Source of the DNA: Naegleria gruberi
Lineage: Eukaryota
Assembly: GCA_000004985.1 (NCBI GenBank)
Contig: GG738894.1
DNA: 64,000 bases
Strand: one strand, 5' to 3'
A model generated the notes under the pieces. That model worked only from the letters and a program-made list of their open reading frames with translations, made no database searches and had not been told where the DNA came from. The position numbers were made by a program, and so were the translations under genes. Below, piece by piece: positions 1 through 31,660 of the stretch (its first letter is position 1; every line of letters starts with the position of its first letter).

Positions 1-3000
1 NNNNNNNNNNNNNNNNNNNNNNNNNNNNNNNNNNNNNNNNNNNNNNNNNNNNNNNNNNNNNNNNNNNNNNNNNNNNNNNNNNNNNNNNNNNNNNNNNNNN
101 NNNNNNNNNNNNNNNNNNNNNNNNNNNNNNNNNNNNNNNNNNNNNNNNNNNNNNNNNNNNNNNNNNNNNNNNNNNNNNNNNNNNNNNNNNNNNNNNNNNN
201 NNNNNNNNNNNNNNNNNNNNNNNNNNNNNNNNNNNNNNNNNNNNNNNNNNNNNNNNNNNNNNNNNNNNNNNNNNNNNNNNNNNNNNNNNNNNNNNNNNNN
301 NNNNNNNNNNNNNNNNNNNNNNNNNNNNNNNNNNNNNNNNNNNNNNNNNNNNNNNNNNNNNNNNNNNNNNNNNNNNNNNNNNNNNNNNNNNNNNNNNNNN
401 NNNNNNNNNNNNNNNNNNNNNNNNNNNNNNNNNNNNNNNNNNNNNNNNNNNNNNNNNNNNNNNNNNNNNNNNNNNNNNNNNNNNNNNNNNNNNNNNNNNN
501 NNNNNNNNNNNNNNNNNNNNNNNNNNNNNNNNNNNNNNNNNNNNNNNNNNNNNNNNNNNNNNNNNNNNNNNNNNNNNNNNNNNNNNNNNNNNNNNNNNNN
601 NNNNNNNNNNNNNNNNNNNNNNNNNNNNNNNNNNNNNNNNNNNNNNNNNNNNNNNNNNNNNNNNNNNNNNNNNNNNNNNNNNNNNNNNNNNNNNNNNNNN
701 NNNNNNNNNNNNNNNNNNNNNNNNNNNNNNNNNNNNNNNNNNNNNNNNNNNNNNNNNNNNNNNNNNNNNNNNNNNNNNNNNNNNNNNNNNNNNNNNNNNN
801 NNNNNNNNNNNNNNNNNNNNNNNNNNNNNNNNNNNNNNNNNNNNNNNNNNNNNNNNNNNNNNNNNNNNNNNNNNNNNNNNNNNNNNNNNNNNNNNNNNNN
901 NNNNNNNNNNNNNNNNNNNNNNNNNNNNNNNNNNNNNNNNNNNNNNNNNNNNNNNNNNNNNNNNNNNNNNNNNNNNNNNNNNNNNNNNNNNNNNNNNNNN
1001 NNNNNNNNNNNNNNNNNNNNNNNNNNNNNNNNNNNNNNNNNNNNNNNNNNNNNNNNNNNNNNNNNNNNNNNNNNNNNNNNNNNNNNNNNNNNNNNNNNNN
1101 NNNNNNNNNNNNNNNNNNNNNNNNNNNNNNNNNNNNNNNNNNNNNNNNNNNNNNNNNNNNNNNNNNNNNNNNNNNNNNNNNNNNNNNNNNNNNNNNNNNN
1201 NNNNNNNNNNNNNNNNNNNNNNNNNNNNNNNNNNNNNNNNNNNNNNNNNNNNNNNNNNNNNNNNNNNNNNNNNNNNNNNNNNNNNNNNNNNNNNNNNNNN
1301 NNNNNNNNNNNNNNNNNNNNNNNNNNNNNNNNNNNNNNNNNNNNNNNNNNNNNNNNNNNNNNNNNNNNNNNNNNNNNNNNNNNNNNNNNNNNNNNNNNNN
1401 NNNNNNNNNNNNNNNNNNNNNNNNNNNNNNNNNNNNNNNNNNNNNNNNNNNNNNNNNNNNNNNNNNNNNNNNNNNNNNNNNNNNNNNNNNNNNNNNNNNN
1501 NNNNNNNNNNNNNNNNNNNNNNNNNNNNNNNNNNNNNNNNNNNNNNNNNNNNNNNNNNNNNNNNNNNNNNNNNNNNNNNNNNNNNNNNNNNNNNNNNNNN
1601 NNNNNNNNNNNNNNNNNNNNNNNNNNNNNNNNNNNNNNNNNNNNNNNNNNNNNNNNNNNNNNNNNNNNNNNNNNNNNNNNNNNNNNNNNNNNNNNNNNNN
1701 NNNNNNNNNNNNNNNNNNNNNNNNNNNNNNNNNNNNNNNNNNNNNNNNNNNNNNNNNNNNNNNNNNNNNNNNNNNNNNNNNNNNNNNNNNNNNNNNNNNN
1801 NNNNNNNNNNNNNNNNNNNNNNNNNNNNNNNNNNNNNNNNNNNNNNNNNNNNNNNNNNNNNNNNNNNNNNNNNNNNNNNNNNNNNNNNNNNNNNNNNNNN
1901 NNNNNNNNNNNNNNNNNNNNNNNNNNNNNNNNNNNNNNNNNNNNNNNNNNNNNNNNNNNNNNNNNNNNNNNNNNNNNNNNNNNNNNNNNNNNNNNNNNNN
2001 NNNNNNNNNNNNNNNNNNNNNNNNNNNNNNNNNNNNNNNNNNNNNNNNNNNNNNNNNNNNNNNNNNNNNNNNNNNNNNNNNNNNNNNNNNNNNNNNNNNN
2101 NNNNNNNNNNNNNNNNNNNNNNNNNNNNNNNNNNNNNNNNNNNNNNNNNNNNNNNNNNNNNNNNNNNNNNNNNNNNNNNNNNNNNNNNNNNNNNNNNNNN
2201 NNNNNNNNNNNNNNNNNNNNNNNNNNNNNNNNNNNNNNNNNNNNNNNNNNNNNNNNNNNNNNNNNNNNNNNNNNNNNNNNNNNNNNNNNNNNNNNNNNNN
2301 NNNNNNNNNNNNNNNNNNNNNNNNNNNNNNNNNNNNNNNNNNNNNNNNNNNNNNNNNNNNNNNNNNNNNNNNNNNNNNNNNNNNNNNNNNNNNNNNNNNN
2401 NNNNNNNNNNNNNNNNNNNNNNNNNNNNNNNNNNNNNNNNNNNNNNNNNNNNNNNNNNNNNNNNNNNNNNNNNNNNNNNNNNNNNNNNNNNNNNNNNNNN
2501 NNNNNNNNNNNNNNNNNNNNNNNNNNNNNNNNNNNNNNNNNNNNNNNNNNNNNNNNNNNNNNNNNNNNNNNNNNNNNNNNNNNNNNNNNNNNNNNNNNNN
2601 NNNNNNNNNNNNNNNNNNNNNNNNNNNNNNNNNNNNNNNNNNNNNNNNNNNNNNNNNNNNNNNNNNNNNNNNNNNNNNNNNNNNNNNNNNNNNNNNNNNN
2701 NNNNNNNNNNNNNNNNNNNNNNNNNNNNNNNNNNNNNNNNNNNNNNNNNNNNNNNNNNNNNNNNNNNNNNNNNNNNNNNNNNNNNNNNNNNNNNNNNNNN
2801 NNNNNNNNNNNNNNNNNNNNNNNNNNNNNNNNNNNNNNNNNNNNNNNNNNNNNNNNNNNNNNNNNNNNNNNNNNNNNNNNNNNNNNNNNNNNNNNNNNNN
2901 NNNNNNNNNNNNNNNNNNNNNNNNNNNNNNNNNNNNNNNNNNNNNNNNNNNNNNNNNNNNNNNNNNNNNNNNNNNNNNNNNNNNNNNNNNNNNNNNNNNN

Positions 3001-6000
3001 NNNNNNNNNNNNNNNNNNNNNNNNNNNNNNNNNNNNNNNNNNNNNNNNNNNNNNNNNNNNNNNNNNNNNNNNNNNNNNNNNNNNNNNNNNNNNNNNNNNN
3101 NNNNNNNNNNNNNNNNNNNNNNNNNNNNNNNNNNNNNNNNNNNNNNNNNNNNNNNNNNNNNNNNNNNNNNNNNNNNNNNNNNNNNNNNNNNNNNNNNNNN
3201 NNNNNNNNNNNNNNNNNNNNNNNNNNNNNNNNNNNNNNNNNNNNNNNNNNNNNNNNNNNNNNNNNNNNNNNNNNNNNNNNNNNNNNNNNNNNNNNNNNNN
3301 NNNNNNNNNNNNNNNNNNNNNNNNNNNNNNNNNNNNNNNNNNNNNNNNNNNNNNNNNNNNNNNNNNNNNNNNNNNNNNNNNNNNNNNNNNNNNNNNNNNN
3401 NNNNNNNNNNNNNNNNNNNNNNNNNNNNNNNNNNNNNNNNNNNNNNNNNNNNNNNNNNNNNNNNNNNNNNNNNNNNNNNNNNNNNNNNNNNNNNNNNNNN
3501 NNNNNNNNNNNNNNNNNNNNNNNNNNNNNNNNNNNNNNNNNNNNNNNNNNNNNNNNNNNNNNNNNNNNNNNNNNNNNNNNNNNNNNNNNNNNNNNNNNNN
3601 NNNNNNNNNNNNNNNNNNNNNNNNNNNNNNNNNNNNNNNNNNNNNNNNNNNNNNNNNNNNNNNNNNNNNNNNNNNNNNNNNNNNNNNNNNNNNNNNNNNN
3701 NNNNNNNNNNNNNNNNNNNNNNNNNNNNNNNNNNNNNNNNNNNNNNNNNNNNNNNNNNNNNNNNNNNNNNNNNNNNNNNNNNNNNNNNNNNNNNNNNNNN
3801 NNNNNNNNNNNNNNNNNNNNNNNNNNNNNNNNNNNNNNNNNNNNNNNNNNNNNNNNNNNNNNNNNNNNNNNNNNNNNNNNNNNNNNNNNNNNNNNNNNNN
3901 NNNNNNNNNNNNNNNNNNNNNNNNNNNNNNNNNNNNNNNNNNNNNNNNNNNNNNNNNNNNNNNNNNNNNNNNNNNNNNNNNNNNNNNNNNNNNNNNNNNN
4001 NNNNNNNNNNNNNNNNNNNNNNNNNNNNNNNNNNNNNNNNNNNNNNNNNNNNNNNNNNNNNNNNNNNNNNNNNNNNNNNNNNNNNNNNNNNNNNNNNNNN
4101 NNNNNNNNNNNNNNNNNNNNNNNNNNNNNNNNNNNNNNNNNNNNNNNNNNNNNNNNNNNNNNNNNNNNNNNNNNNNNNNNNNNNNNNNNNNNNNNNNNNN
4201 NNNNNNNNNNNNNNNNNNNNNNNNNNNNNNNNNNNNNNNNNNNNNNNNNNNNNNNNNNNNNNNNNNNNNNNNNNNNNNNNNNNNNNNNNNNNNNNNNNNN
4301 NNNNNNNNNNNNNNNNNNNNNNNNNNNNNNNNNNNNNNNNNNNNNNNNNNNNNNNNNNNNNNNNNNNNNNNNNNNNNNNNNNNNNNNNNNNNNNNNNNNN
4401 NNNNNNNNNNNNNNNNNNNNNNNNNNNNNNNNNNNNNNNNNNNNNNNNNNNNNNNNNNNNNNNNNNNNNNNNNNNNNNNNNNNNNNNNNNNNNNNNNNNN
4501 NNNNNNNNNNNNNNNNNNNNNNNNNNNNNNNNNNNNNNNNNNNNNNNNNNNNNNNNNNNNNNNNNNNNNNNNNNNNNNNNNNNNNNNNNNNNNNNNNNNN
4601 NNNNNNNNNNNNNNNNNNNNNNNNNNNNNNNNNNNNNNNNNNNNNNNNNNNNNNNNNNNNNNNNNNNNNNNNNNNNNNNNNNNNNNNNNNNNNNNNNNNN
4701 NNNNNNNNNNNNNNNNNNNNNNNNNNNNNNNNNNNNNNNNNNNNNNNNNNNNNNNNNNNNNNNNNNNNNNNNNNNNNNNNNNNNNNNNNNNNNNNNNNNN
4801 NNNNNNNNNNNNNNNNNNNNNNNNNNNNNNNNNNNNNNNNNNNNNNNNNNNNNNNNNNNNNNNNNNNNNNNNNNNNNNNNNNNNNNNNNNNNNNNNNNNN
4901 NNNNNNNNNNNNNNNNNNNNNNNNNNNNNNNNNNNNNNNNNNNNNNNNNNNNNNNNNNNNNNNNNNNNNNNNNNNNNNNNNNNNNNNNNNNNNNNNNNNN
5001 NNNNNNNNNNNNNNNNNNNNNNNNNNNNNNNNNNNNNNNNNNNNNNNNNNNNNNNNNNNNNNNNNNNNNNNNNNNNNNNNNNNNNNNNNNNNNNNNNNNN
5101 NNNNNNNNNNNNNNNNNNNNNNNNNNNNNNNNNNNNNNNNNNNNNNNNNNNNNNNNNNNNNNNNNNNNNNNNNNNNNNNNNNNNNNNNNNNNNNNNNNNN
5201 NNNNNNNNNNNNNNNNNNNNNNNNNNNNNNNNNNNNNNNNNNNNNNNNNNNNNNNNNNNNNNNNNNNNNNNNNNNNNNNNNNNNNNNNNNNNNNNNNNNN
5301 NNNNNNNNNNNNNNNNNNNNNNNNNNNNNNNNNNNNNNNNNNNNNNNNNNNNNNNNNNNNNNNNNNNNNNNNNNNNNNNNNNNNNNNNNNNNNNNNNNNN
5401 NNNNNNNNNNNNNNNNNNNNNNNNNNNNNNNNNNNNNNNNNNNNNNNNNNNNNNNNNNNNNNNNNNNNNNNNNNNNNNNNNNNNNNNNNNNNNNNNNNNN
5501 NNNNNNNNNNNNNNNNNNNNNNNNNNNNNNNNNNNNNNNNNNNNNNNNNNNNNNNNNNNNNNNNNNNNNNNNNNNNNNNNNNNNNNNNNNNNNNNNNNNN
5601 NNNNNNNNNNNNNNNNNNNNNNNNNNNNNNNNNNNNNNNNNNNNNNNNNNNNNNNNNNNNNNNNNNNNNNNNNNNNNNNNNNNNNNNNNNNNNNNNNNNN
5701 NNNNNNNNNNNNNNNNNNNNNNNNNNNNNNNNNNNNNNNNNNNNNNNNNNNNNNNNNNNNNNNNNNNNNNNNNNNNNNNNNNNNNNNNNNNNNNNNNNNN
5801 NNNNNNNNNNNNNNNNNNNNNNNNNNNNNNNNNNNNNNNNNNNNNNNNNNNNNNNNNNNNNNNNNNNNNNNNNNNNNNNNNNNNNNNNNNNNNNNNNNNN
5901 NNNNNNNNNNNNNNNNNNNNNNNNNNNNNNNNNNNNNNNNNNNNNNNNNNNNNNNNNNNNNNNNNNNNNNNNNNNNNNNNNNNNNNNNNNNNNNNNNNNN

Positions 6001-9000
6001 NNNNNNNNNNNNNNNNNNNNNNNNNNNNNNNNNNNNNNNNNNNNNNNNNNNNNNNNNNNNNNNNNNNNNNNNNNNNNNNNNNNNNNNNNNNNNNNNNNNN
6101 NNNNNNNNNNNNNNNNNNNNNNNNNNNNNNNNNNNNNNNNNNNNNNNNNNNNNNNNNNNNNNNNNNNNNNNNNNNNNNNNNNNNNNNNNNNNNNNNNNNN
6201 NNNNNNNNNNNNNNNNNNNNNNNNNNNNNNNNNNNNNNNNNNNNNNNNNNNNNNNNNNNNNNNNNNNNNNNNNNNNNNNNNNNNNNNNNNNNNNNNNNNN
6301 NNNNNNNNNNNNNNNNNNNNNNNNNNNNNNNNNNNNNNNNNNNNNNNNNNNNNNNNNNNNNNNNNNNNNNNNNNNNNNNNNNNNNNNNNNNNNNNNNNNN
6401 NNNNNNNNNNNNNNNNNNNNNNNNNNNNNNNNNNNNNNNNNNNNNNNNNNNNNNNNNNNNNNNNNNNNNNNNNNNNNNNNNNNNNNNNNNNNNNNNNNNN
6501 NNNNNNNNNNNNNNNNNNNNNNNNNNNNNNNNNNNNNNNNNNNNNNNNNNNNNNNNNNNNNNNNNNNNNNNNNNNNNNNNNNNNNNNNNNNNNNNNNNNN
6601 NNNNNNNNNNNNNNNNNNNNNNNNNNNNNNNNNNNNNNNNNNNNNNNNNNNNNNNNNNNNNNNNNNNNNNNNNNNNNNNNNNNNNNNNNNNNNNNNNNNN
6701 NNNNNNNNNNNNNNNNNNNNNNNNNNNNNNNNNNNNNNNNNNNNNNNNNNNNNNNNNNNNNNNNNNNNNNNNNNNNNNNNNNNNNNNNNNNNNNNNNNNN
6801 NNNNNNNNNNNNNNNNNNNNNNNNNNNNNNNNNNNNNNNNNNNNNNNNNNNNNNNNNNNNNNNNNNNNNNNNNNNNNNNNNNNNNNNNNNNNNNNNNNNN
6901 NNNNNNNNNNNNNNNNNNNNNNNNNNNNNNNNNNNNNNNNNNNNNNNNNNNNNNNNNNNNNNNNNNNNNNNNNNNNNNNNNNNNNNNNNNNNNNNNNNNN
7001 NNNNNNNNNNNNNNNNNNNNNNNNNNNNNNNNNNNNNNNNNNNNNNNNNNNNNNNNNNNNNNNNNNNNNNNNNNNNNNNNNNNNNNNNNNNNNNNNNNNN
7101 NNNNNNNNNNNNNNNNNNNNNNNNNNNNNNNNNNNNNNNNNNNNNNNNNNNNNNNNNNNNNNNNNNNNNNNNNNNNNNNNNNNNNNNNNNNNNNNNNNNN
7201 NNNNNNNNNNNNNNNNNNNNNNNNNNNNNNNNNNNNNNNNNNNNNNNNNNNNNNNNNNNNNNNNNNNNNNNNNNNNNNNNNNNNNNNNNNNNNNNNNNNN
7301 NNNNNNNNNNNNNNNNNNNNNNNNNNNNNNNNNNNNNNNNNNNNNNNNNNNNNNNNNNNNNNNNNNNNNNNNNNNNNNNNNNNNNNNNNNNNNNNNNNNN
7401 NNNNNNNNNNNNNNNNNNNNNNNNNNNNNNNNNNNNNNNNNNNNNNNNNNNNNNNNNNNNNNNNNNNNNNNNNNNNNNNNNNNNNNNNNNNNNNNNNNNN
7501 NNNNNNNNNNNNNNNNNNNNNNNNNNNNNNNNNNNNNNNNNNNNNNNNNNNNNNNNNNNNNNNNNNNNNNNNNNNNNNNNNNNNNNNNNNNNNNNNNNNN
7601 NNNNNNNNNNNNNNNNNNNNNNNNNNNNNNNNNNNNNNNNNNNNNNNNNNNNNNNNNNNNNNNNNNNNNNNNNNNNNNNNNNNNNNNNNNNNNNNNNNNN
7701 NNNNNNNNNNNNNNNNNNNNNNNNNNNNNNNNNNNNNNNNNNNNNNNNNNNNNNNNNNNNNNNNNNNNNNNNNNNNNNNNNNNNNNNNNNNNNNNNNNNN
7801 NNNNNNNNNNNNNNNNNNNNNNNNNNNNNNNNNNNNNNNNNNNNNNNNNNNNNNNNNNNNNNNNNNNNNNNNNNNNNNNNNNNNNNNNNNNNNNNNNNNN
7901 NNNNNNNNNNNNNNNNNNNNNNNNNNNNNNNNNNNNNNNNNNNNNNNNNNNNNNNNNNNNNNNNNNNNNNNNNNNNNNNNNNNNNNNNNNNNNNNNNNNN
8001 NNNNNNNNNNNNNNNNNNNNNNNNNNNNNNNNNNNNNNNNNNNNNNNNNNNNNNNNNNNNNNNNNNNNNNNNNNNNNNNNNNNNNNNNNNNNNNNNNNNN
8101 NNNNNNNNNNNNNNNNNNNNNNNNNNNNNNNNNNNNNNNNNNNNNNNNNNNNNNNNNNNNNNNNNNNNNNNNNNNNNNNNNNNNNNNNNNNNNNNNNNNN
8201 NNNNNNNNNNNNNNNNNNNNNNNNNNNNNNNNNNNNNNNNNNNNNNNNNNNNNNNNNNNNNNNNNNNNNNNNNNNNNNNNNNNNNNNNNNNNNNNNNNNN
8301 NNNNNNNNNNNNNNNNNNNNNNNNNNNNNNNNNNNNNNNNNNNNNNNNNNNNNNNNNNNNNNNNNNNNNNNNNNNNNNNNNNNNNNNNNNNNNNNNNNNN
8401 NNNNNNNNNNNNNNNNNNNNNNNNNNNNNNNNNNNNNNNNNNNNNNNNNNNNNNNNNNNNNNNNNNNNNNNNNNNNNNNNNNNNNNNNNNNNNNNNNNNN
8501 NNNNNNNNNNNNNNNNNNNNNNNNNNNNNNNNNNNNNNNNNNNNNNNNNNNNNNNNNNNNNNNNNNNNNNNNNNNNNNNNNNNNNNNNNNNNNNNNNNNN
8601 NNNNNNNNNNNNNNNNNNNNNNNNNNNNNNNNNNNNNNNNNNNNNNNNNNNNNNNNNNNNNNNNNNNNNNNNNNNNNNNNNNNNNNNNNNNNNNNNNNNN
8701 NNNNNNNNNNNNNNNNNNNNNNNNNNNNNNNNNNNNNNNNNNNNNNNNNNNNNNNNNNNNNNNNNNNNNNNNNNNNNNNNNNNNNNNNNNNNNNNNNNNN
8801 NNNNNNNNNNNNNNNNNNNNNNNNNNNNNNNNNNNNNNNNNNNNNNNNNNNNNNNNNNNNNNNNNNNNNNNNNNNNNNNNNNNNNNNNNNNNNNNNNNNN
8901 NNNNNNNNNNNNNNNNNNNNNNNNNNNNNNNNNNNNNNNNNNNNNNNNNNNNNNNNNNNNNNNNNNNNNNNNNNNNNNNNNNNNNNNNNNNNNNNNNNNN

Positions 9001-9860
9001 NNNNNNNNNNNNNNNNNNNNNNNNNNNNNNNNNNNNNNNNNNNNNNNNNNNNNNNNNNNNNNNNNNNNNNNNNNNNNNNNNNNNNNNNNNNNNNNNNNNN
9101 NNNNNNNNNNNNNNNNNNNNNNNNNNNNNNNNNNNNNNNNNNNNNNNNNNNNNNNNNNNNNNNNNNNNNNNNNNNNNNNNNNNNNNNNNNNNNNNNNNNN
9201 NNNNNNNNNNNNNNNNNNNNNNNNNNNNNNNNNNNNNNNNNNNNNNNNNNNNNNNNNNNNNNNNNNNNNNNNNNNNNNNNNNNNNNNNNNNNNNNNNNNN
9301 NNNNNNNNNNNNNNNNNNNNNNNNNNNNNNNNNNNNNNNNNNNNNNNNNNNNNNNNNNNNNNNNNNNNNNNNNNNNNNNNNNNNNNNNNNNNNNNNNNNN
9401 NNNNNNNNNNNNNNNNNNNNNNNNNNNNNNNNNNNNNNNNNNNNNNNNNNNNNNNNNNNNNNNNNNNNNNNNNNNNNNNNNNNNNNNNNNNNNNNNNNNN
9501 NNNNNNNNNNNNNNNNNNNNNNNNNNNNNNNNNNNNNNNNNNNNNNNNNNNNNNNNNNNNNNNNNNNNNNNNNNNNNNNNNNNNNNNNNNNNNNNNNNNN
9601 NNNNNNNNNNNNNNNNNNNNNNNNNNNNNNNNNNNNNNNNNNNNNNNNNNNNNNNNNNNNNNNNNNNNNNNNNNNNNNNNNNNNNNNNNNNNNNNNNNNN
9701 NNNNNNNNNNNNNNNNNNNNNNNNNNNNNNNNNNNNNNNNNNNNNNNNNNNNNNNNNNNNNNNNNNNNNNNNNNNNNNNNNNNNNNNNNNNNNNNNNNNN
9801 NNNNNNNNNNNNNNNNNNNNNNNNNNNNNNNNNNNNNNNNNNNNNNNNNNNNNNNNNNNN
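1..9860. other. Assembly gap (run of N)
   Basis: Uninterrupted n characters from 1 to 9860; real sequence starts at 9861. Confidence 0.99.
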
Positions 9861-11305
9861 TCCTTGACCACTCGAATATTAATACTCAATCTTTTTCTAT
9901 TTCTGATTTTGGTTTTCCTAATTTTGTTCTTTTTGGTTCGAATTGGCACTTTGTCAGACCAATACTCCTCTGTGTCATAGCCAGAGAGACTGGATTCTTC
10001 TTCGGTGGCTTCTTCTAGCTCAGTAAAAATTGTTTCGTTTTGGGATTCGGATTCGGGTATGGTAGTTACATCTTCATTTAGTTGTTTTTCTCTATCGTAC
10101 TGTCCTTTGTCATTTGTTTTTTCTAATTCCAAATCAACCTCAGTTCCCTCTTCATCTGAATCAAACTCATCGTCATCACTCAGTGAGCTATATTCATCAT
10201 CACTCGAAAAGTCTTCTTCACTTTCCGCTCCAGAATAAACCATTTGAGGTTCTGTCTTGTCCAAGTATTGTTGAGATGACAATGAAAATTGTTCTAACTC
10301 TTCTGTCAATTTGCTGTCCCATTTTAACCTTTTCCTTAATTTCTTAGCTACTGGAAGTTTATAAACTATATCACAAAAGTAGTTTTCAAAGTATGAGGAT
10401 GTTAGTTCAATGAGATGGGAGAAATTTTTTACTCCAATATTGTACAACATTAACTCAACTCCTGCCAATATTCTGCCAAGCCTTTTTCTTGTTCTGTCAT
10501 TGTAGCATGAATCATTTGTTCTGACATCAAGTACTTCACTACTATTTGCACTCTGCCTCGAGGTTGTAATAAATTTACTGTTGGGGAAGTTTGACATGTA
10601 CGATTGAGCTGCCAGTAATGTGTATGCTGGATCTACAGTTAACGAAAGTTGTTTCATGTTCATGACAGAATAAACATTTCCATTATTCTTAATAAAGGTT
10701 GAAGGGTGGTCTTTTTCTACAAATTGTGAGAAGTCCATTTCTCCATATTCCAAAGAATAATCAATATTCTCCAAGGCCTTCTTTGGTGCCTTTTTTTTTG
10801 GTGAACCTAATTCAGAAGAAGCAGCTCGTTTATTAGATTCCTGAGGTGTTGGTTCAGAATTTTCTAAAAAAGAAGATGGTAAAAAAGACGACTGGGTGCT
10901 TAATACATCAACATTTGAATCTTGAGTCAAATTGAGTCTTTGGGTATTTGAAATTGGAGATGTGTTATTGAAAGGAGTTGTCACATGTTGAATGTTGACT
11001 CGTTGTTGGAAGTTTGATGTTGGAGTTGTTGTTGTTTCATGTTGACCAATGTTAACTCGTTGTTGAAAGTATCTTACATGATTTGAGGTAGGAATAATGT
11101 GTTGAAGGATAGGTGTTGGACTCGGAGACACCACATAGTTTGGAGAGGTTATGTGGATTGGTATTTGAGATGTGGGTGTTGTGTTGAAGGCTCTGATATT
11201 GGGGCATGTTGCTGGTTGACAACGGAATGGGCTGTAGAGTAAGGGTGATCTGTATGATTGACGTTGGTTGATGATTACCTGATGGTTGACTTGTTGATTC
11301 ATTTT
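9861..11305 (-). CDS. Hypothetical S/T/N/Q-rich protein, 3' end truncated by the gap
   Basis: Reverse-complement reading from ATG (plus 11303-11305; MNQQVNHQVIINQRQSY...) stays open for >480 codons to the gap edge. It is absent from the ORF track only because it has no stop. N-terminal low-complexity region with an internal repeat FQQRVNI(G)QH..TT, a basic patch SPKKKAPKK, then an acidic DDEYSSLSDDDEFDSDEE tail. No recognisable domain. Confidence 0.45.
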
Positions 11306-17526: not shown

Positions 17527-18660
17527 CTAATAGCTCTCTGATTTGTTGAACTTATTTGCTCCCCACAGTAGTGAATTCTCATGATTTAGTCCTTGATCAC
17601 CAATTCTATTGCCACGAATATTAAGTGATGTTAATTGTTTCATTTCACTTATATATTTGGCTCCTTCTACACCAATTCGATTGCCACGAATATTAAGTGA
17701 TGTTAATTGTTTCATTTCACTAATGAATTTGACTTTGCCACAAATATTAAGTGATGTTAATTGTTTCATTTCACTAATGAATTTAGCTCCTTCATCACCA
17801 GTTCTATTGTAAGAAATATTAAGTGATGTTAATTGTTTCATTTCACTAATGTATTTGACTCCTTCTATACCAATTTCATTTTCAGAAATATTAAGTGATG
17901 TTAATTGTTTCATTTCACTAATGAATTTAGCTCCTTCTATACCAATGAGAGTGTAATAAATATTAAGTGATGTCAATTGTTTCATTCCACTTATATATTT
18001 GGCTCCTTCATCGCCAATTATATTGTAAGAAATATCAAGTGATGTTAATTGTTTCATTTCACTTATATATTTGGCTCCTTCATCGCCAATTTCATTTTCA
18101 CGAATATTAAGTGATATTAATTGTTTCATTTCACTGATATATTTAGCTCCTTCATCACCAATTACATTGTAAGAAATATTAAGTGATGTTAATTGTTTCA
18201 TTTCACTGATATATTTGGCTCCTTCTACACCAATTCGATTGCCACGAATATTAAGTGATGTTAATTGTTTCATTTCAGTTACGAATTTGAGTTGTTCTAT
18301 GGCTTCCAGCAAATTTGTTGAAAATTTAACATCAACAATACTATTCATAAACTGACTTTTCATGAATAATTCAACTCGTTTCTCTGTAATGTTGTTTTTA
18401 AATTGAATAACAAGTTTTGAACGTTCCTTGATCACATTAAAGAATTGTTTTGAAATTAAAGTACAATTATTTAAAATAAACCACGAATCATCAATCATGC
18501 AAATTATTTCAAAACAAATATCATCTGAAAATATTTCTTGTTCGAGTTTCACATGCTTTTTTACTTTCTCTTCCATATTATTATTATTATTGTTAGTGAA
18601 TATTTCCTCCGAATTAATTAATTGATGATTTTCAAAATCTTGTCTGTTTCGTTTGCTCAT
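17527..18660 (-). CDS. Leucine-rich repeat protein (LRR_RI-type, 24-aa repeats GAKYISEMKQLTSLNISYNVIGDE)
   Basis: 377-aa ORF. About 10 tandem 72-nt repeats each encode one LRR. The N-terminus (DICFEIICMIDDSWFILNNCTLISKQFFNVIKERSKLVIQFK) is F-box-like. Paralog of 49469..50320. Confidence 0.8.
   Translation of the reverse strand: MSKRNRQDFENHQLINSEEIFTNNNNNNMEEKVKKHVKLEQEIFSDDICFEIICMIDDSWFILNNCTLISKQFFNVIKERSKLVIQFKNNITEKRVELFMKSQFMNSIVDVKFSTNLLEAIEQLKFVTEMKQLTSLNIRGNRIGVEGAKYISEMKQLTSLNISYNVIGDEGAKYISEMKQLISLNIRENEIGDEGAKYISEMKQLTSLDISYNIIGDEGAKYISGMKQLTSLNIYYTLIGIEGAKFISEMKQLTSLNISENEIGIEGVKYISEMKQLTSLNISYNRTGDEGAKFISEMKQLTSLNICGKVKFISEMKQLTSLNIRGNRIGVEGAKYISEMKQLTSLNIRGNRIGDQGLNHENSLLWGANKFNKSESY
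17590..18290. repeat. Tandem 72-bp coding repeats (LRR units) inside the LRR gene
   Basis: Recurring ...gttaattgtttcatttcact(a/g)at(a/g)(a/t)atttggctccttc... units are visible on the plus strand. This is protein-coding periodicity, not a CRISPR array. Confidence 0.7.
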
Positions 18661-18747: not shown

Positions 18748-20790
18748 CTACAATATTTCTCTTTGCATCATAATCAGTCCAAAAAGGACTTGATGCAGCA
18801 CTGATAGTTCAACTCGTTCTTGCAAACAGGTATCTCTGAATCGGATAGTCACAGTTGCATTCAATAAACTCTCTTCATCAATAGTGATGGCAATAGGAAT
18901 TCCAATTTCATCAGCACGTTTATATTTCTTTCCAATTGAGTGTGCACTTTCATCATGTTTGAAGGGAATGGAAAGAGTTCTTATAATTTTAGTAACCTTT
19001 TCTAGTACCATCTTTTCCTCATTAGTTTTGACTTTACAGTTAGAAACCAGTAATACCTTGATTGGAGCCAACTGACTTGGTAAAGAAAGAATAGGCCTTT
19101 CCTCATCTCGAGTCCAAAATACATGTTCCAATAAGCTCAATAATATTCTACTAACAGAAAATGAAAGATCAATGATGTGAGGAGTAATCTTTTCTCCATA
19201 AACTTTTTTCACACATTCCACAAACGAAATATCATCTTTGGATAATTGGAAATTCTTTCCATTGATATCAAGTGAGATTTTGTGGTTGGTTTCCAACTCT
19301 GTTTGATATTGAGATTTCTTCTCCTTAGATAGTCCACTAAGGTGCTCTAACAGTATTTTGGTATCATTCTTGTAACGTTTTCCAAGCTTTTGATGTGAAA
19401 ACTCCACAACTATTTCTCTCTCCTCAAGAGGTTCATCAAATGAATCAAATAGAGAGAGATCAGAGTTAGAATGTTGAGAATGTTGCAGCAAATCGTAACC
19501 TGCTTTGGATTGAACATTAACAACCTCTACCCAACCAATGGTTGTCAACACCTCACATGTCCACAACTGCTCCAATCTATATGAAAATTGTTTTCGAAAC
19601 CGTATTCCTTCACTCAAAAATCCACATTCCTCCATGAATTCTTGTGTTCTGGCAAGATAGTAAGCCAATGATTTGTTAGCTATGAATTCTTGTTCCGCAG
19701 CATCTTTGATCGAAATCTTGGTTTCTTCATCATTTGAATCTAAAAGCAATCTCACAATTACTTGCTCGACTTTCTTGGAGTACTTTTCACAATTATTTTT
19801 CTTTGCTCCATTGCAGAAATGCATTATTTTTGCGCTTGAATTTTCCCTCAGTTTCGAATAGTGGCCAGTAGTTGTAGAATTATCAAAAATGGACCCAACC
19901 TGTGCAACTGAAAAGGGTAACCGTTTTCCACCATATTCCCATAACCGCTTAATATTTGTGTAAACACCTTGATCGAGATCAGGTCTCAAATAAACACTTG
20001 TTCTACCTGTTACTCCAATTTGTGTTTTAATCGCAAACGTCCATTCAAATACTTCAGAAATTTGATTTCCATCCATACTCCTAATTCTAAACCTCTTAAT
20101 AATATTATTCATGGCACCACCATCATAAGAATGAAGATTTGCAAGAATTTCTCTGAAATGTTTGATTTGAACACTTGTTAATAAATCCTCGTTGCCCAGC
20201 TTTTCCTGTATGAAATCCTCAATAACTTTGGTGGCAAGAATGATCTTATCAGTCTTCATATCTTTCACAATAAATTCATTAAAAGGAAAAAAGAATCCAA
20301 AAGCTCTGTAAACTTCATCAAGTACAAGTGAGCTCGTTTCCATTTCCATCATTTCTTCCTCCAATACGAAATGTTTCCTCCATAATCCAATCACATTATT
20401 CTTCAAATTGCATCCCAAAGGACCTAAATCCACCAAACCACTCACTCCACCATAAATTTCGAATGACGGTAATACGAAACAATTTTTCAATAAACATGCC
20501 CTTAATAACTGATCATTGAAATGTAATTTACTCGATTCGGAACACTTCTTTGCAATTATTTTCAATTCCAAATTTAATAATTTAATTCTCTCCTCATCAC
20601 GATCGGAAGAAGAATTAAAATTTGATAATTGTTGTAATTTTTCTTTGAATAATTGATTAATAGCAATTCGTTCTTCTAATGTTGCAATTTTAGGTTGATT
20701 GTTGGTGGTAGTTGTCGAAGAAATTGCATTTTCCGTTGATGTGTTGTTGCCTATCTGATTGTTGATCATTTTTTTAATTTGTAATTTCAC
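18748..20790 (-). CDS. Glycyl-tRNA synthetase-like protein (class II, eukaryotic dimeric type) with substituted catalytic motifs
   Basis: 680-aa intronless ORF. FVLPSFEIYGGVSGLVDLGPLGCNLKNNVIGLWRKHF matches the GlyRS N-terminal catalytic core. YLRPDLDQGVYTNIKRLWEYGGKRLPFSVAQVGSIF matches [36 protein letters not shown]. The C-terminal anticodon-binding region (PIKVLLVSN...SIGKKYKRADEIGIPIAITIDEES) matches GlyRS. The motif-2 positions FRNEISPR...RVREF read FDNSTTTG...KLREN, and KTSGHVDKF reads RAFGFFFPF. Confidence 0.75.
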   Translation of the reverse strand: MKLQIKKMINNQIGNNTSTENAISSTTTTNNQPKIATLEERIAINQLFKEKLQQLSNFNSSSDRDEERIKLLNLELKIIAKKCSESSKLHFNDQLLRACLLKNCFVLPSFEIYGGVSGLVDLGPLGCNLKNNVIGLWRKHFVLEEEMMEMETSSLVLDEVYRAFGFFFPFNEFIVKDMKTDKIILATKVIEDFIQEKLGNEDLLTSVQIKHFREILANLHSYDGGAMNNIIKRFRIRSMDGNQISEVFEWTFAIKTQIGVTGRTSVYLRPDLDQGVYTNIKRLWEYGGKRLPFSVAQVGSIFDNSTTTGHYSKLRENSSAKIMHFCNGAKKNNCEKYSKKVEQVIVRLLLDSNDEETKISIKDAAEQEFIANKSLAYYLARTQEFMEECGFLSEGIRFRKQFSYRLEQLWTCEVLTTIGWVEVVNVQSKAGYDLLQHSQHSNSDLSLFDSFDEPLEEREIVVEFSHQKLGKRYKNDTKILLEHLSGLSKEKKSQYQTELETNHKISLDINGKNFQLSKDDISFVECVKKVYGEKITPHIIDLSFSVSRILLSLLEHVFWTRDEERPILSLPSQLAPIKVLLVSNCKVKTNEEKMVLEKVTKIIRTLSIPFKHDESAHSIGKKYKRADEIGIPIAITIDEESLLNATVTIRFRDTCLQERVELSVLHQVLFGLIMMQREIL

Positions 20791-21627: not shown

Positions 21628-23097
21628 ATGCCAGCCAATGTCGGAACTAGAAGAAAATTGAATCCAAATCTTAAGAAGGGATATGTAGCTCCACCAGTTG
21701 AAGATCATATCATCATTGAAGAGGATCAAAAGCAAAAATCACAACAACAACAACCTGTAAAAACAAAGAAGCAACAACAACCAATTGCTAATACTTCATC
21801 ACCAGCAACCACTACTACCACTAACAAGGTTGTTACCAATGCAAATGTACCAACAACAACAACAACAACAGCACCAAAAGCAAAGAATGTAAAATCATCA
21901 TCAGAATCACGTTTTGAAAAGTACGAAAAACAACATGAAGCCTTCATCAAGCAAATGGAAACATTCATGAAGTCCTTCCTTGATTTTGAAAAGGAGAGAT
22001 TGGCCTTCATGAAAGAACAATTCGGATCAAAGAGTGTTGGCACAACCACCACTACACAAACAACTGTGGCCAACAATAAGAAGGATAACAAGACAATTAC
22101 AGCCACAACAACAACTACACCAACAAAAACTACAACTCCTCCTCCAACTAACACAACTGTTAAAACAACAACAGCAACAGCAGCAACTACTACTCCTAAG
22201 AAAAAGACAACAGAACCAACCACAACTCCACAAAATAATACCAATGTAACATCACCAAAATCAACCAAGAATGAAGCAGCAAAGAATAAGGATCCTGCTG
22301 TTGATGCTTCTCCAACTAAGCAACAAACCAAGAAGGCAACAACTACTACTAGCCCTACCACTACTGCCACTACCACCACTACAACTGTACCAACAAAGAT
22401 TAGAGAATTGACTGTAACAAAAGATGAAATTTTTGATAATCTCAAAGTTGTCTATGTGAGTGGTGAAAACATCAAGGCAATTGCCGAGGCTAATAAGGTA
22501 TTCGATACTTTGGAAAAGAAGGATGCTGTATATGGATTTGACATTTTGTGGAATGCAAAGGAGGAAAAGACAATTAACGAAAGCCCAACCGAAACTCACA
22601 TCCTTGTACCAATCAGACTCATCTTATTGGCTAATCATGACACTGTCTTTGTTTATAGACCTCCAACTGCCGAAGAGATGCTTGCTGAAAAGATTGATAG
22701 ACCTCTCCCAGTAGCTCTTTACAAAATTCTCACTCAAAATCAATGTGTCAAGGTTTCATTTAATGCTATTGAAAAGGTCAACTACTTGTACCATAATTTG
22801 AACACTACCTATGTTAGTCATGTATCTGATATCAACTCCCTTTTCGTGAAGGAACCATATGGTTCTGCATTGGATATGTTAAGTAAGGAATTGGAATTAC
22901 CAACAGAACAAGTTTCCAAAGAGCTCAAAATGAGACATAATATTAATTATAGCAAGGAGCTCAGTAATGGCCAACTTGTCACAGTTGCCAAGAGATGTTG
23001 GTTGGAATTAAGACTTGTTGAAAAATTCTCTGAAAAACAAAAAACCAAGACAAATCTATTTGACTTTGTGACCAAAAACATGAAAATTGAAGATTAA
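21628..23097 (+). CDS. Thr/Gln-rich low-complexity protein with a C-terminal globular domain (weak 3'-5' exonuclease/DEDD-like resemblance)
   Basis: 489-aa ORF. The N-terminal two-thirds is poly-Thr/Pro/Lys/Gln (mucin-like). The C-terminus (VYGFDILWNAKEEK...IRLILLAN...) loosely resembles the GFDxEW / LIQL opening of WRN/RNase D-type exonuclease domains, but with the acidic residue replaced (E to L). This domain call is low confidence. Confidence 0.5.
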   Translation: MPANVGTRRKLNPNLKKGYVAPPVEDHIIIEEDQKQKSQQQQPVKTKKQQQPIANTSSPATTTTTNKVVTNANVPTTTTTTAPKAKNVKSSSESRFEKYEKQHEAFIKQMETFMKSFLDFEKERLAFMKEQFGSKSVGTTTTTQTTVANNKKDNKTITATTTTTPTKTTTPPPTNTTVKTTTATAATTTPKKKTTEPTTTPQNNTNVTSPKSTKNEAAKNKDPAVDASPTKQQTKKATTTTSPTTTATTTTTTVPTKIRELTVTKDEIFDNLKVVYVSGENIKAIAEANKVFDTLEKKDAVYGFDILWNAKEEKTINESPTETHILVPIRLILLANHDTVFVYRPPTAEEMLAEKIDRPLPVALYKILTQNQCVKVSFNAIEKVNYLYHNLNTTYVSHVSDINSLFVKEPYGSALDMLSKELELPTEQVSKELKMRHNINYSKELSNGQLVTVAKRCWLELRLVEKFSEKQKTKTNLFDFVTKNMKIED

Positions 23098-31587: not shown

Positions 31588-31660
31588 CGCCCCACGTGGG
31601 GCTCGAACCCACGACCGTTGGATTAAAAGTCCAACGCTCTACCGACTGAGCTAGCAGGGC
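31588..31660 (-). tRNA. tRNA-Lys (anticodon UUU)
   Basis: The reverse complement GCCCTGCTAGCTCAGTCGGTAGAGCGTTGGACTTTTAATCCAACGGTCGTGGGTTCGAGCCCCACGTGGGGCG folds as a cloverleaf. The acceptor stem has 7 bp including 2 G-U pairs. D-loop AGTCGGTA, anticodon loop CTTTTAA, T-arm GTGGGTTCGAGCCCCAC, discriminator G, 73 nt. It closely matches eukaryotic tRNA-Lys-UUU. Confidence 0.9.

Follow-up and report, generated by a model that had tools for sequence, protein, structure and literature searches.

A glycyl-tRNA synthetase-like paralog of Naegleria gruberi with a rewritten active site, a probable non-catalytic pseudo-synthetase

Dead paralogs of aminoacyl-tRNA synthetases (aaRS) provide a recognised route from translation enzyme to regulatory role. 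The histidyl-tRNA synthetase (HisRS)-like domain of GCN2, for instance, is a class IIa synthetase derivative that has ceased to aminoacylate and now serves as a regulatory module sensing a ligand or tRNA. Here we describe a candidate of this kind, the gene NAEGRDRAFT_51934 of Naegleria gruberi, located in a 64,000-nucleotide stretch of contig GG738894.1 (assembly GCA_000004985.1; hereafter the window) and encoding a protein related to glycyl-tRNA synthetase (GlyRS), and we compare it with the synthetase-derived proteins described to date.

SLIMP, a paralog of seryl-tRNA synthetase (SerRS), forms a heterodimer with SerRS2 to which it contributes the tRNA-binding arm, an inactive subunit working for an active partner (PMC10570016; PMC9437257). 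The Naegleria protein resembles it as a full-length class II aaRS paralog produced by duplication with the canonical enzyme retained, and in its ablated active site, kept tRNA-binding element and fast evolution (PMC10570016; PMC9437257). SLIMP is, however, SerRS-derived and animal-specific, with proven heterodimerisation, requirement for aminoacylation and LON binding, whereas for the Naegleria protein a pairing is only proposed and the canonical GlyRS looks self-sufficient. HisZ is a class IIa synthetase paralog that does not aminoacylate and was reused as a regulatory module (PMC9437257), but it has no anticodon-binding domain and still binds histidine, whereas the Naegleria protein has lost the amino-acid pocket. 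The HisRS-like module of GCN2 is fused to a kinase, while the Naegleria protein stands alone. POLG2 offers another likeness, being a dimer with a class IIa GlyRS-like fold, an HGTP-type C-terminal domain and no catalytic residues, and it appears among both the sequence and the fold matches of NAEGRDRAFT_51934. POLG2 is nevertheless a distant relative, its matches being confined to the C-terminal domain by sequence (E ~1e-5) and to 13-15% identity by fold, and it lacks the GlyRS insertions and partners Pol gamma in animals, whereas the derivation of the Naegleria protein from GlyRS is recent and unmistakable. Finally, yeast GRS2 (GlyRS2) is a second eukaryotic GlyRS gene beside the housekeeping one (PMC9437257), but it keeps the catalytic motifs, lost in the Naegleria paralog, and a residual stress-related activity.

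In a 2022 review of aaRS duplications, the GlyRS entries consist of yeast GlyRS2 and amino-acid:carrier-protein ligases only, with no full-length, stand-alone GlyRS-derived pseudo-synthetase from a free-living protist (PMC9437257). By its sequence, NAEGRDRAFT_51934 fits the known category of aaRS-derived pseudo-synthetases formed by SLIMP, HisZ, POLG2 and the GCN2 HisRS-like domain; it is unsurprising in principle, and it offers a clean, testable case outside animals. We consider it probable, although by no means certain, that it is a selected, non-catalytic GlyRS-like pseudo-synthetase, paralogous to the eukaryotic-type (alpha2) enzyme.

GlyRS architecture and the state of the active site

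NAEGRDRAFT_51934 is a single uninterrupted and intronless open reading frame (ORF) on the minus strand at 18748..20790, where the sequence-only reading had placed it. It counts 680 codons from a mechanical GTG start, its first ATG being codon 8 (window position 20769), which gives a likely coding sequence of 673 aa, and its stop lies at 18748-18750. The ORF has 0 internal stops, and the encoded product matches N. gruberi XP_002672955.1 (EFC40211.1; D2VSL1) at 100% identity, an entry annotated as 'predicted protein' and nothing more on a scaffold of 499,907 bp, which identifies the window as nuclear DNA of N. gruberi; no mention of these accessions was found in the literature searched.

A phmmer search against PDB sequences aligned residues 98-669 with residues 72-652 of human GlyRS (572 residues, E = 4e-89), bearing out the proposed end-to-end homology, and the next matches were archaeal and bacterial alpha2 GlyRS, then POLG2. 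Pfam recognised the anticodon-binding domain (PF03129 HGTP_anticodon, residues 590-668, E = 2e-15, 57 bits for a cut-off of 21), and the class II core model tRNA-synt_2b found no match at E <= 0.1; canonical Naegleria GlyRS score 34.7-36.6 bits with the latter model (cut-off 29.3). The AlphaFold2 model, built from a 43-sequence alignment, is confident over most of the chain (mean predicted local distance difference test, pLDDT, 76; predicted template modelling score, pTM, 0.67), with the motif-2 loop (residues 304-314) below pLDDT 50. Foldseek matched this model with human GlyRS (4kqe, E = 1.5e-50), then with other GlyRS, then with POLG2, and GlyRS insertions 1-3 all align. Judged by its predicted fold, its insertions and its anticodon-binding domain, NAEGRDRAFT_51934 is a member of the eukaryotic-type alpha2 GlyRS family. 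The scaffold had also been called highly conserved, which did not hold: identity to any canonical GlyRS is 30-37%, and the protein keeps 115 of the 235 columns that are at least 90% conserved among 42 canonical enzymes, where canonical sequences each keep 76-100%.

The active site was scored on a motif alignment comprising NAEGRDRAFT_51934, the human enzyme, four GlyRS of heteroloboseans and four from other eukaryotes, using 14 ATP- and glycine-pocket residues in human numbering, a set that matches the pocket residues of PMC11988775. Ten of the 14 are replaced (E245>D, R277>D, E279>S, R288>K, F292>N, E296>K, R410>K, E522>D, G526>S and G528>S), and R290, E403, S524 and R529 are unchanged. The same set fits the structures of Thermus thermophilus and human GlyRS, in which the motif-2 Arg holds the ATP alpha-phosphate, the motif-2 Phe stacks the adenine and three Glu hold the glycine amino group; the human substitution G526R blocks the ATP site. 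Further changes, in the same numbering, are T246>L, A247>D, E298>M, G406>N and P523>L, with E291 kept.

The degenerate motif 2 ('AQVGSIFDNSTTTGHYSKLRENSSAKIMHF', residues 296-325, 19816..19905, minus strand as for all features of the gene) reads FDNSTTT-GHYSKLRENSSAKIMHF, and the motif-2 Arg and Glu reported as lost are indeed replaced in the human GlyRS alignment, R277 by D303 and E279 by S305, as is the adenine-stacking Phe (F292 by N317). These residues are not displaced by a local indel, the alternative raised with the initial claim. The segment 'SIFDNSTTTGHYSKLRENSSAKIMHF' aligns with the human motif-2 region without gaps save for one 1-residue loop deletion, 'AQ[IV]G' and F-[R>D]-N-[E>S] are spaced as in canonical enzymes, and the sole nearby Arg, R315, has R290 of the second strand ('RVREF') as its counterpart. 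The protein contains each of the three strings quoted from it, 'IDLSFSVSRILL' pairing with 'IEPSFGLGRIMY' in the alignment with canonical GlyRS. All three glycine-pocket Glu are replaced (E245>D, E296>K, E522>D) and S524 is kept; the glycine-pocket loop is 'RPDLDQG' (residues 269-275, 19966..19986) for the invariant 'RPETAQG', and the active-site strand is 'WVEVVNVQSKA' (residues 420-430, 19501..19533) for 'WIE[IV]VG[CI]A[DN]RS'. A degenerate motif 3 ('IIDLSFSVSRILL', residues 539-551, 19138..19176) reads IDLSFSVSR where canonical enzymes have IEPSFG[IL]GR: its Arg is retained as had been observed (R529 as R548), and the 'GxGxGR' signature has lost two glycines (G526>S, G528>S). Within the motif-1 segment, 'RAFGFFFPF' (20281-20307) stands in register for 'KTSGHVDKF'. 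Just upstream of the active-site strand, a 4-residue deletion precedes a conserved Trp (canonical AHYA.DCWD.E, here ----WTCE).

Since the class II ATP-binding and glycine-holding residues are lost, formation of glycyl-adenylate, and hence tRNA charging and diadenosine tetraphosphate (Ap4A) synthesis, is very unlikely for this protein, a prediction from sequence that we hold with high confidence. In motif 2, adenine-stacking Phe, glycine pocket and Pfam core model alike, the sequence departs from that of an active class II synthetase. The initial proposal of a loss of aminoacylation chemistry with the fold kept agrees with the ten replacements and with the structural match of the predicted model. 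The extent of pocket replacement is unique among 391 GlyRS-family proteins, which include the 150 best cluster representatives from an exhaustive scan of 1.84 billion proteins, the next ones having 6 and 4 replacements, and it far exceeds what chance would give. One metagenome protein (P0213; ENA, 585 aa, 12.5-kb contig of an AT-rich organism) has 6 of the 14 residues changed, including motif-2 Arg>Lys, motif-3 Arg>Lys and G526>Y, and may be a further degenerate GlyRS.

The full-length architecture, the kept anticodon-binding domain and the retained motif-3 Arg and E403 could be read as a still-active but unusual GlyRS, for instance an organellar enzyme with a non-canonical active site. We regard this as extremely improbable: the joint loss of R277, E279, F292, E245, E296, E522, G526 and G528 is unprecedented among the 391 sequences, the N-terminus 'MINNQIGNNTSTENAISSTTTTNNQ' is, judged by eye, unlike a mitochondrial presequence, and a canonical copy is available that can supply both compartments, the arrangement of most eukaryotes. 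A neofunctionalised enzyme with a new substrate and reaction is also quite improbable, if less so. Its pocket would have been remodelled around D271, D273, D303, K321, K429, D541, R315 and R548, being rewritten rather than deleted and still charged, with R290, E291, E403, S524 and the motif-3 Arg retained on the catalytic sheet, and AsnA, PoxA/EpmA and the amino-acid:carrier-protein ligases provide precedents (PMC9437257). Known aaRS-derived enzymes of this type nevertheless all keep ATP binding, whereas in NAEGRDRAFT_51934 neither the motif-2 Arg and Glu nor the adenine-stacking Phe nor the motif-3 glycines remain, confidence in the modelled motif-2 loop is low, and the pocket is conserved in no second species, the replacements of the N. 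lovaniensis paralog described below being different.

Outside the pocket, the protein follows the GlyRS layout. An N-terminal helical extension of two long helices in the AlphaFold2 secondary structure (~residues 38-88, 20527..20679) aligns with that of heterolobosean canonical GlyRS, the phmmer alignment with the heterolobosean transcript P0121 beginning at residue 45, and Pfam detected no WHEP domain in this extension or in that of the Naegleria canonical enzymes. The N-terminal catalytic segment with class II motif 1 ('SFEIYGGVSGLVDLGPLGCNLKNNVIGLWRKHFV', residues 98-172, 20275..20499) is where the catalytic domain has eroded least, residues 98-160 keeping 26 of 35 family-conserved columns. 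The insertion 3 equivalent spans ~residues 459-523 (19222..19416), and the C-terminal HGTP_anticodon domain spans ~residues 571-673 (18772..19080), including the well-kept 'SIGKKYKRADEIGIPIAITID'. The chain stops ~25 residues short of the heterolobosean tail 'YPEQKQTASDKVGKK' and is devoid of the heterolobosean insertion after motif 3.

Canonical enzyme, origin and a second paralog in Naegleria

The canonical N. gruberi GlyRS (P0281, 650 aa, every motif intact) is encoded on a separate scaffold of 394.7 kb, and NAEGRDRAFT_51934, which shares 36% identity with it (405 bits), is therefore a paralog, as had been supposed. That it might be the sole GlyRS copy of the genome was considered and rejected: P0281 was absent from the 120 best matches of the first search, and was recovered with P0121, the best non-self match of NAEGRDRAFT_51934, as a query that returned the canonical GlyRS of N. 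gruberi, N. lovaniensis, Willaertia magna and Acrasis kona. The negatives of this word-indexed homology search do not amount to absence, as it missed Naegleria and Willaertia GlyRS of 410-433 bits in its top 120 and returned nothing, source protein included, for a 201-aa fragment of NAEGRDRAFT_51934. The top match of the first search (P0002) belongs to a gene-dense, intron-free metagenome scaffold (L001; ENA, 6 kb), and another match, P0273 (Phoenix dactylifera, 1214 aa), is a date-palm gene model fusing two tandem GlyRS units, with inflated scores.

With phmmer, the canonical GlyRS of N. lovaniensis scored highest against NAEGRDRAFT_51934 (433 bits), followed by Willaertia (427), an environmental Naegleria-like sequence (413) and N. 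gruberi (410), while other heteroloboseans reached 345-390 bits and non-heteroloboseans at most 374. Its position was assessed with a neighbour-joining (NJ) tree and a self-written likelihood placement using a GlyRS-derived exchange matrix and four gamma rate categories; the NJ tree and counts of exclusive signatures were dominated by long-branch noise and were not relied on. When the N. lovaniensis paralog was left out, the placement was unstable; both approaches located NAEGRDRAFT_51934 either within the heterolobosean group or at its base, with long branches, and the less eroded C-terminal half alone favoured the Naegleria+Willaertia stem. A recent duplication within the N. gruberi lineage was rejected, the terminal branch of the canonical N. 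gruberi enzyme being 12-21 log-likelihood (lnL) units worse. A giant-virus origin found no support, the best IMG/VR GlyRS being 30% identical.

A foreign gene, from a giant virus or another eukaryote, would account for the deep placement with long branches at the heterolobosean base, for the missing post-motif-3 insertion and C-terminal tail, and for the 20 heterolobosean signature columns, of which 6 carry the outgroup state and 4 the heterolobosean one. Such an origin is nonetheless highly improbable, given the weak viral match, the top scores to Naegleria and Willaertia GlyRS, the signal of the C-terminal half, host-like codon usage and ordinary Naegleria neighbours, and given that the protein sits inside the Naegleria/Willaertia group once the N. 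lovaniensis paralog is included, also on variable columns only. NAEGRDRAFT_51934 would rather descend from a GlyRS gene of the Naegleria lineage, duplicated no later than the split between N. gruberi and N. lovaniensis, its subsequent evolutionary rate being several times that of the canonical copy.

An earlier view that the protein has no relative anywhere had to be revised. The exhaustive HMMER scan topped out at 36-38% identity and a metagenome scan found no orthologs, but a pocket-substitution screen of the exhaustive-search matches flagged the N. lovaniensis protein C9374_010603 (P0155), whose cluster also holds C9374_006773 (P0392, 651 aa), both existing besides the canonical C9374_003246 (P0275). 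Their loci (L023:6001-7956 and L022:5475-7365; GCA_003324165.2, contigs PYSW02000028.1 and PYSW02000044.1) are 99.1-99.5% identical over 13 kb with identical neighbours, and on this near-identity they are interpreted as haplotigs or a very recent duplication. In the L022 copy (C9374_010603), a 62-nt deletion at codon 134 shifts the frame and results in a truncated 454-aa gene model; apart from this, the two coding sequences are told apart by one indel of 3 nt and by 5 substitutions, of which 2 are non-synonymous and 3 synonymous.

The intact N. lovaniensis paralog shares 51% identity with its own canonical GlyRS and 35% with NAEGRDRAFT_51934. At 20 pocket and flanking positions, canonical GlyRS read ETAGRERRFEEEGREPSGGR, the N. 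lovaniensis paralog DLKNREERFEIEDNETTHGR and NAEGRDRAFT_51934 DLDGDSKRNKMENKDLSSSR. The former paralog retains the motif-2 Arg and Glu, F292, E296 and E522, has lost E245, T246, G406, R410, S524 and G526, and scores 22 bits with the Pfam core model, below threshold; UniRef labels both copies 'glycine--tRNA ligase', a name that is probably wrong. Common to the N. gruberi and N. lovaniensis paralogs are E245>D, T246L, the loss of G406, R410 and G526 and the missing C-terminal tail, while the N-terminal extension is absent from the N. lovaniensis protein, unlike NAEGRDRAFT_51934.

With this paralog in the backbone, NAEGRDRAFT_51934 attaches to the paralog branch within the Naegleria/Willaertia group, with a likelihood weight of 1.0 for all sites (18 lnL units above the next placement), 0.92 for variable columns only, 0.995 for the C-terminal half and 0.70 for the N-terminal half. 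Its variable insertions 2 and 3 likewise resemble those of the N. lovaniensis paralog more than those of the two canonical enzymes. Several observations nevertheless speak against simple orthology. Placed alone, the N. lovaniensis paralog goes to the terminal branch of the N. lovaniensis canonical enzyme (likelihood weight 1.0), so that an independent origin or gene conversion is possible. No synteny was detected between the window and the N. lovaniensis loci, the GlyRS-like gene being the sole match. Furthermore, at the 28 deeply conserved columns changed in both paralogs the same residue is found at 5, for 5.1 expected by chance, and shared derived residues were therefore discarded as a proof of orthology. 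The overlap of changed positions itself (28 observed, 19 expected, p = 0.0013) fits a shared loss of constraint as well as shared ancestry. Taken from these sequences, a common origin before the species split followed by gene conversion in N. lovaniensis appears somewhat more likely than two independent duplications. A genus-level pseudo-synthetase family arising from one old duplication, with NAEGRDRAFT_51934 and C9374_006773 as non-catalytic binders of tRNA-Gly or dead heterodimer partners, is conceivable but rather unlikely; if true, it would be the first GlyRS counterpart of SLIMP/SerRS2 and the first outside animals.

Selection, decay and a possible function

The sequence-only reading excluded simple decay, and the intact ORF and the domain-dependent divergence agree with it. 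The coding frame contains 0 internal stops where the other five frames of the interval 18748-20790 have 27-67, with no ORF above 70 aa, and ~55 stops would be expected in 680 codons of random sequence of the same composition. All indels are in frame. A neutrally evolving copy would have been expected to take up dozens of stops, since 7.2% of the possible non-synonymous single-base changes in the ORF would create one and its pendant branch is estimated at 1.1-1.35 amino-acid substitutions per site. Retention also depends on site class, a pattern unlike neutral decay: among columns invariant in four Naegleria/Willaertia canonical enzymes, split by their conservation in other eukaryotes, the ancestral residue is kept at 57% of the deeply conserved and 38% of the lineage-specific ones (Fisher p = 8e-4).

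Retention likewise varies along the chain. Dividing the identity between NAEGRDRAFT_51934 and the N. gruberi canonical enzyme by that between the latter and human GlyRS gives ratios of 1.06 for the anticodon-binding domain (0.45 vs 0.42), 0.99 for the motif-3 region (0.44 vs 0.44) and 0.88 for insertion 3 (0.32 vs 0.37), down to 0.67 for insertion 1 (0.25 vs 0.38) and 0.57 for the motif-2 sheet (0.41 vs 0.73). Family-conserved columns are kept at 60 of 89 positions (67%) in the motif-1, motif-3 and anticodon-binding regions, vs 51 of 131 (39%) across residues 161-440 (p = 3.7e-5). Constraint is closest to normal in the motif-1 region, in insertion 3 and in the anticodon-binding domain. Codon usage is host-like (GC content of 0.42, 0.31 and 0.30 at the first, second and third codon positions; correlation of relative synonymous codon usage of 0.83 with neighbouring genes). 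Taken together, ORF integrity and the site-class, domain and codon tests suggest that selection preserved a folded protein with its catalytic pocket released.

Several results weigh against such a selected pseudo-synthetase, some of them suiting a slow decay, in which a redundant GlyRS copy under strongly relaxed selection has no function of its own and has acquired no disabling mutation yet. About half of the family-conserved positions (51%) are replaced protein-wide and not in the active site alone, and the 14 pocket residues (4 kept) are not significantly more eroded than the other conserved positions (111 of 221 kept, p = 0.17), so that a strong relaxation of the protein as a whole has to be reckoned with. 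Exact-protein look-ups gave no transcript-derived contig with NAEGRDRAFT_51934, and its accession is absent from the supplementary files of the published studies searched. The only candidate ortholog known, at 35% identity, is too distant for a ratio of non-synonymous to synonymous rates (dN/dS), and one of its two copies is frameshifted, which hints that such paralogs could be dispensable or slowly decaying. The changed positions of the two paralogs overlap in excess with replacements identical at chance level only, another feature that decay would produce. Finally, the 'FNLMF' segment, which we take to lie near the GlyRS dimer interface, is also rewritten, so that dimerisation is uncertain. 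Slow decay is still unlikely in our view, as none of the dozens of expected stops is found, indels are all in frame, conservation remains patterned by site class and domain, the structural model is confident over most of the chain, and a coding pattern with GC highest at the first codon position persists together with host-like codon usage. The reading of NAEGRDRAFT_51934 as a selected non-catalytic protein is accordingly the one that we pursue here.

Both subunits of human GlyRS contribute to each tRNA site, the insertion 3 of the partner contacting the tRNA elbow (PMC9908026; PMC10164559). By analogy, NAEGRDRAFT_51934 may bind tRNA, most simply tRNA-Gly, via its anticodon-binding domain and insertion 3, and/or may form a dimer across the class II interface, either a homodimer or one that includes the canonical GlyRS, working as a SLIMP-like non-catalytic tRNA-binding or regulatory subunit. 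This specific tRNA-binding or heterodimer role is tentative, and we grant it about half the credence of the selected pseudo-synthetase itself. Should it prove to be expressed and to bind either tRNA-Gly or canonical GlyRS, the 'dead-subunit' principle would reach GlyRS and Discoba, and the heavily eroded N. gruberi and half-eroded N. lovaniensis paralogs would form a natural series of class II active-site dismantling in which tRNA-binding modules persist. If it is unexpressed, it would be a long-lived decaying duplicate of little consequence. We advise the annotation 'glycyl-tRNA synthetase-like, predicted inactive', neither ligase nor anonymous protein.

Genomic neighbourhood of the paralog

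The genes around NAEGRDRAFT_51934 are ordinary Naegleria genes, encoding a leucine-rich repeat (LRR) protein, an EGF/kinase protein, a methyltransferase and an actin-like protein, and no second GlyRS-like locus lies within the window. The first 9860 positions of the window (1-9860) are all N, corresponding to a scaffold gap or padding, and the real sequence starts at 9861. The sole tRNA gene of the window is a tRNA-Lys(UUU) predicted by ARAGORN at 31588-31660 (minus strand), with no tRNA-Gly nearby.

Immediately downstream of NAEGRDRAFT_51934, an LRR_6 protein gene (17527-18660, minus strand) is composed of near-identical 24-residue repeats ('GDEGAKYISEMKQLTSLNI...'), and the strand opposite to it carries spurious repeat-derived ORFs. 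The N. lovaniensis GlyRS paralog also has an LRR gene as neighbour, its loci being otherwise non-syntenic with the window. On the other side, a divergently transcribed gene (21628-23097, plus strand), whose 489-aa product abounds in Thr runs and matches no Pfam entry, has an intergenic region of 837 bp in common with the GlyRS-like gene, and the 239-aa poly-Val antisense ORF at 21726-22445 is a mirror artefact.

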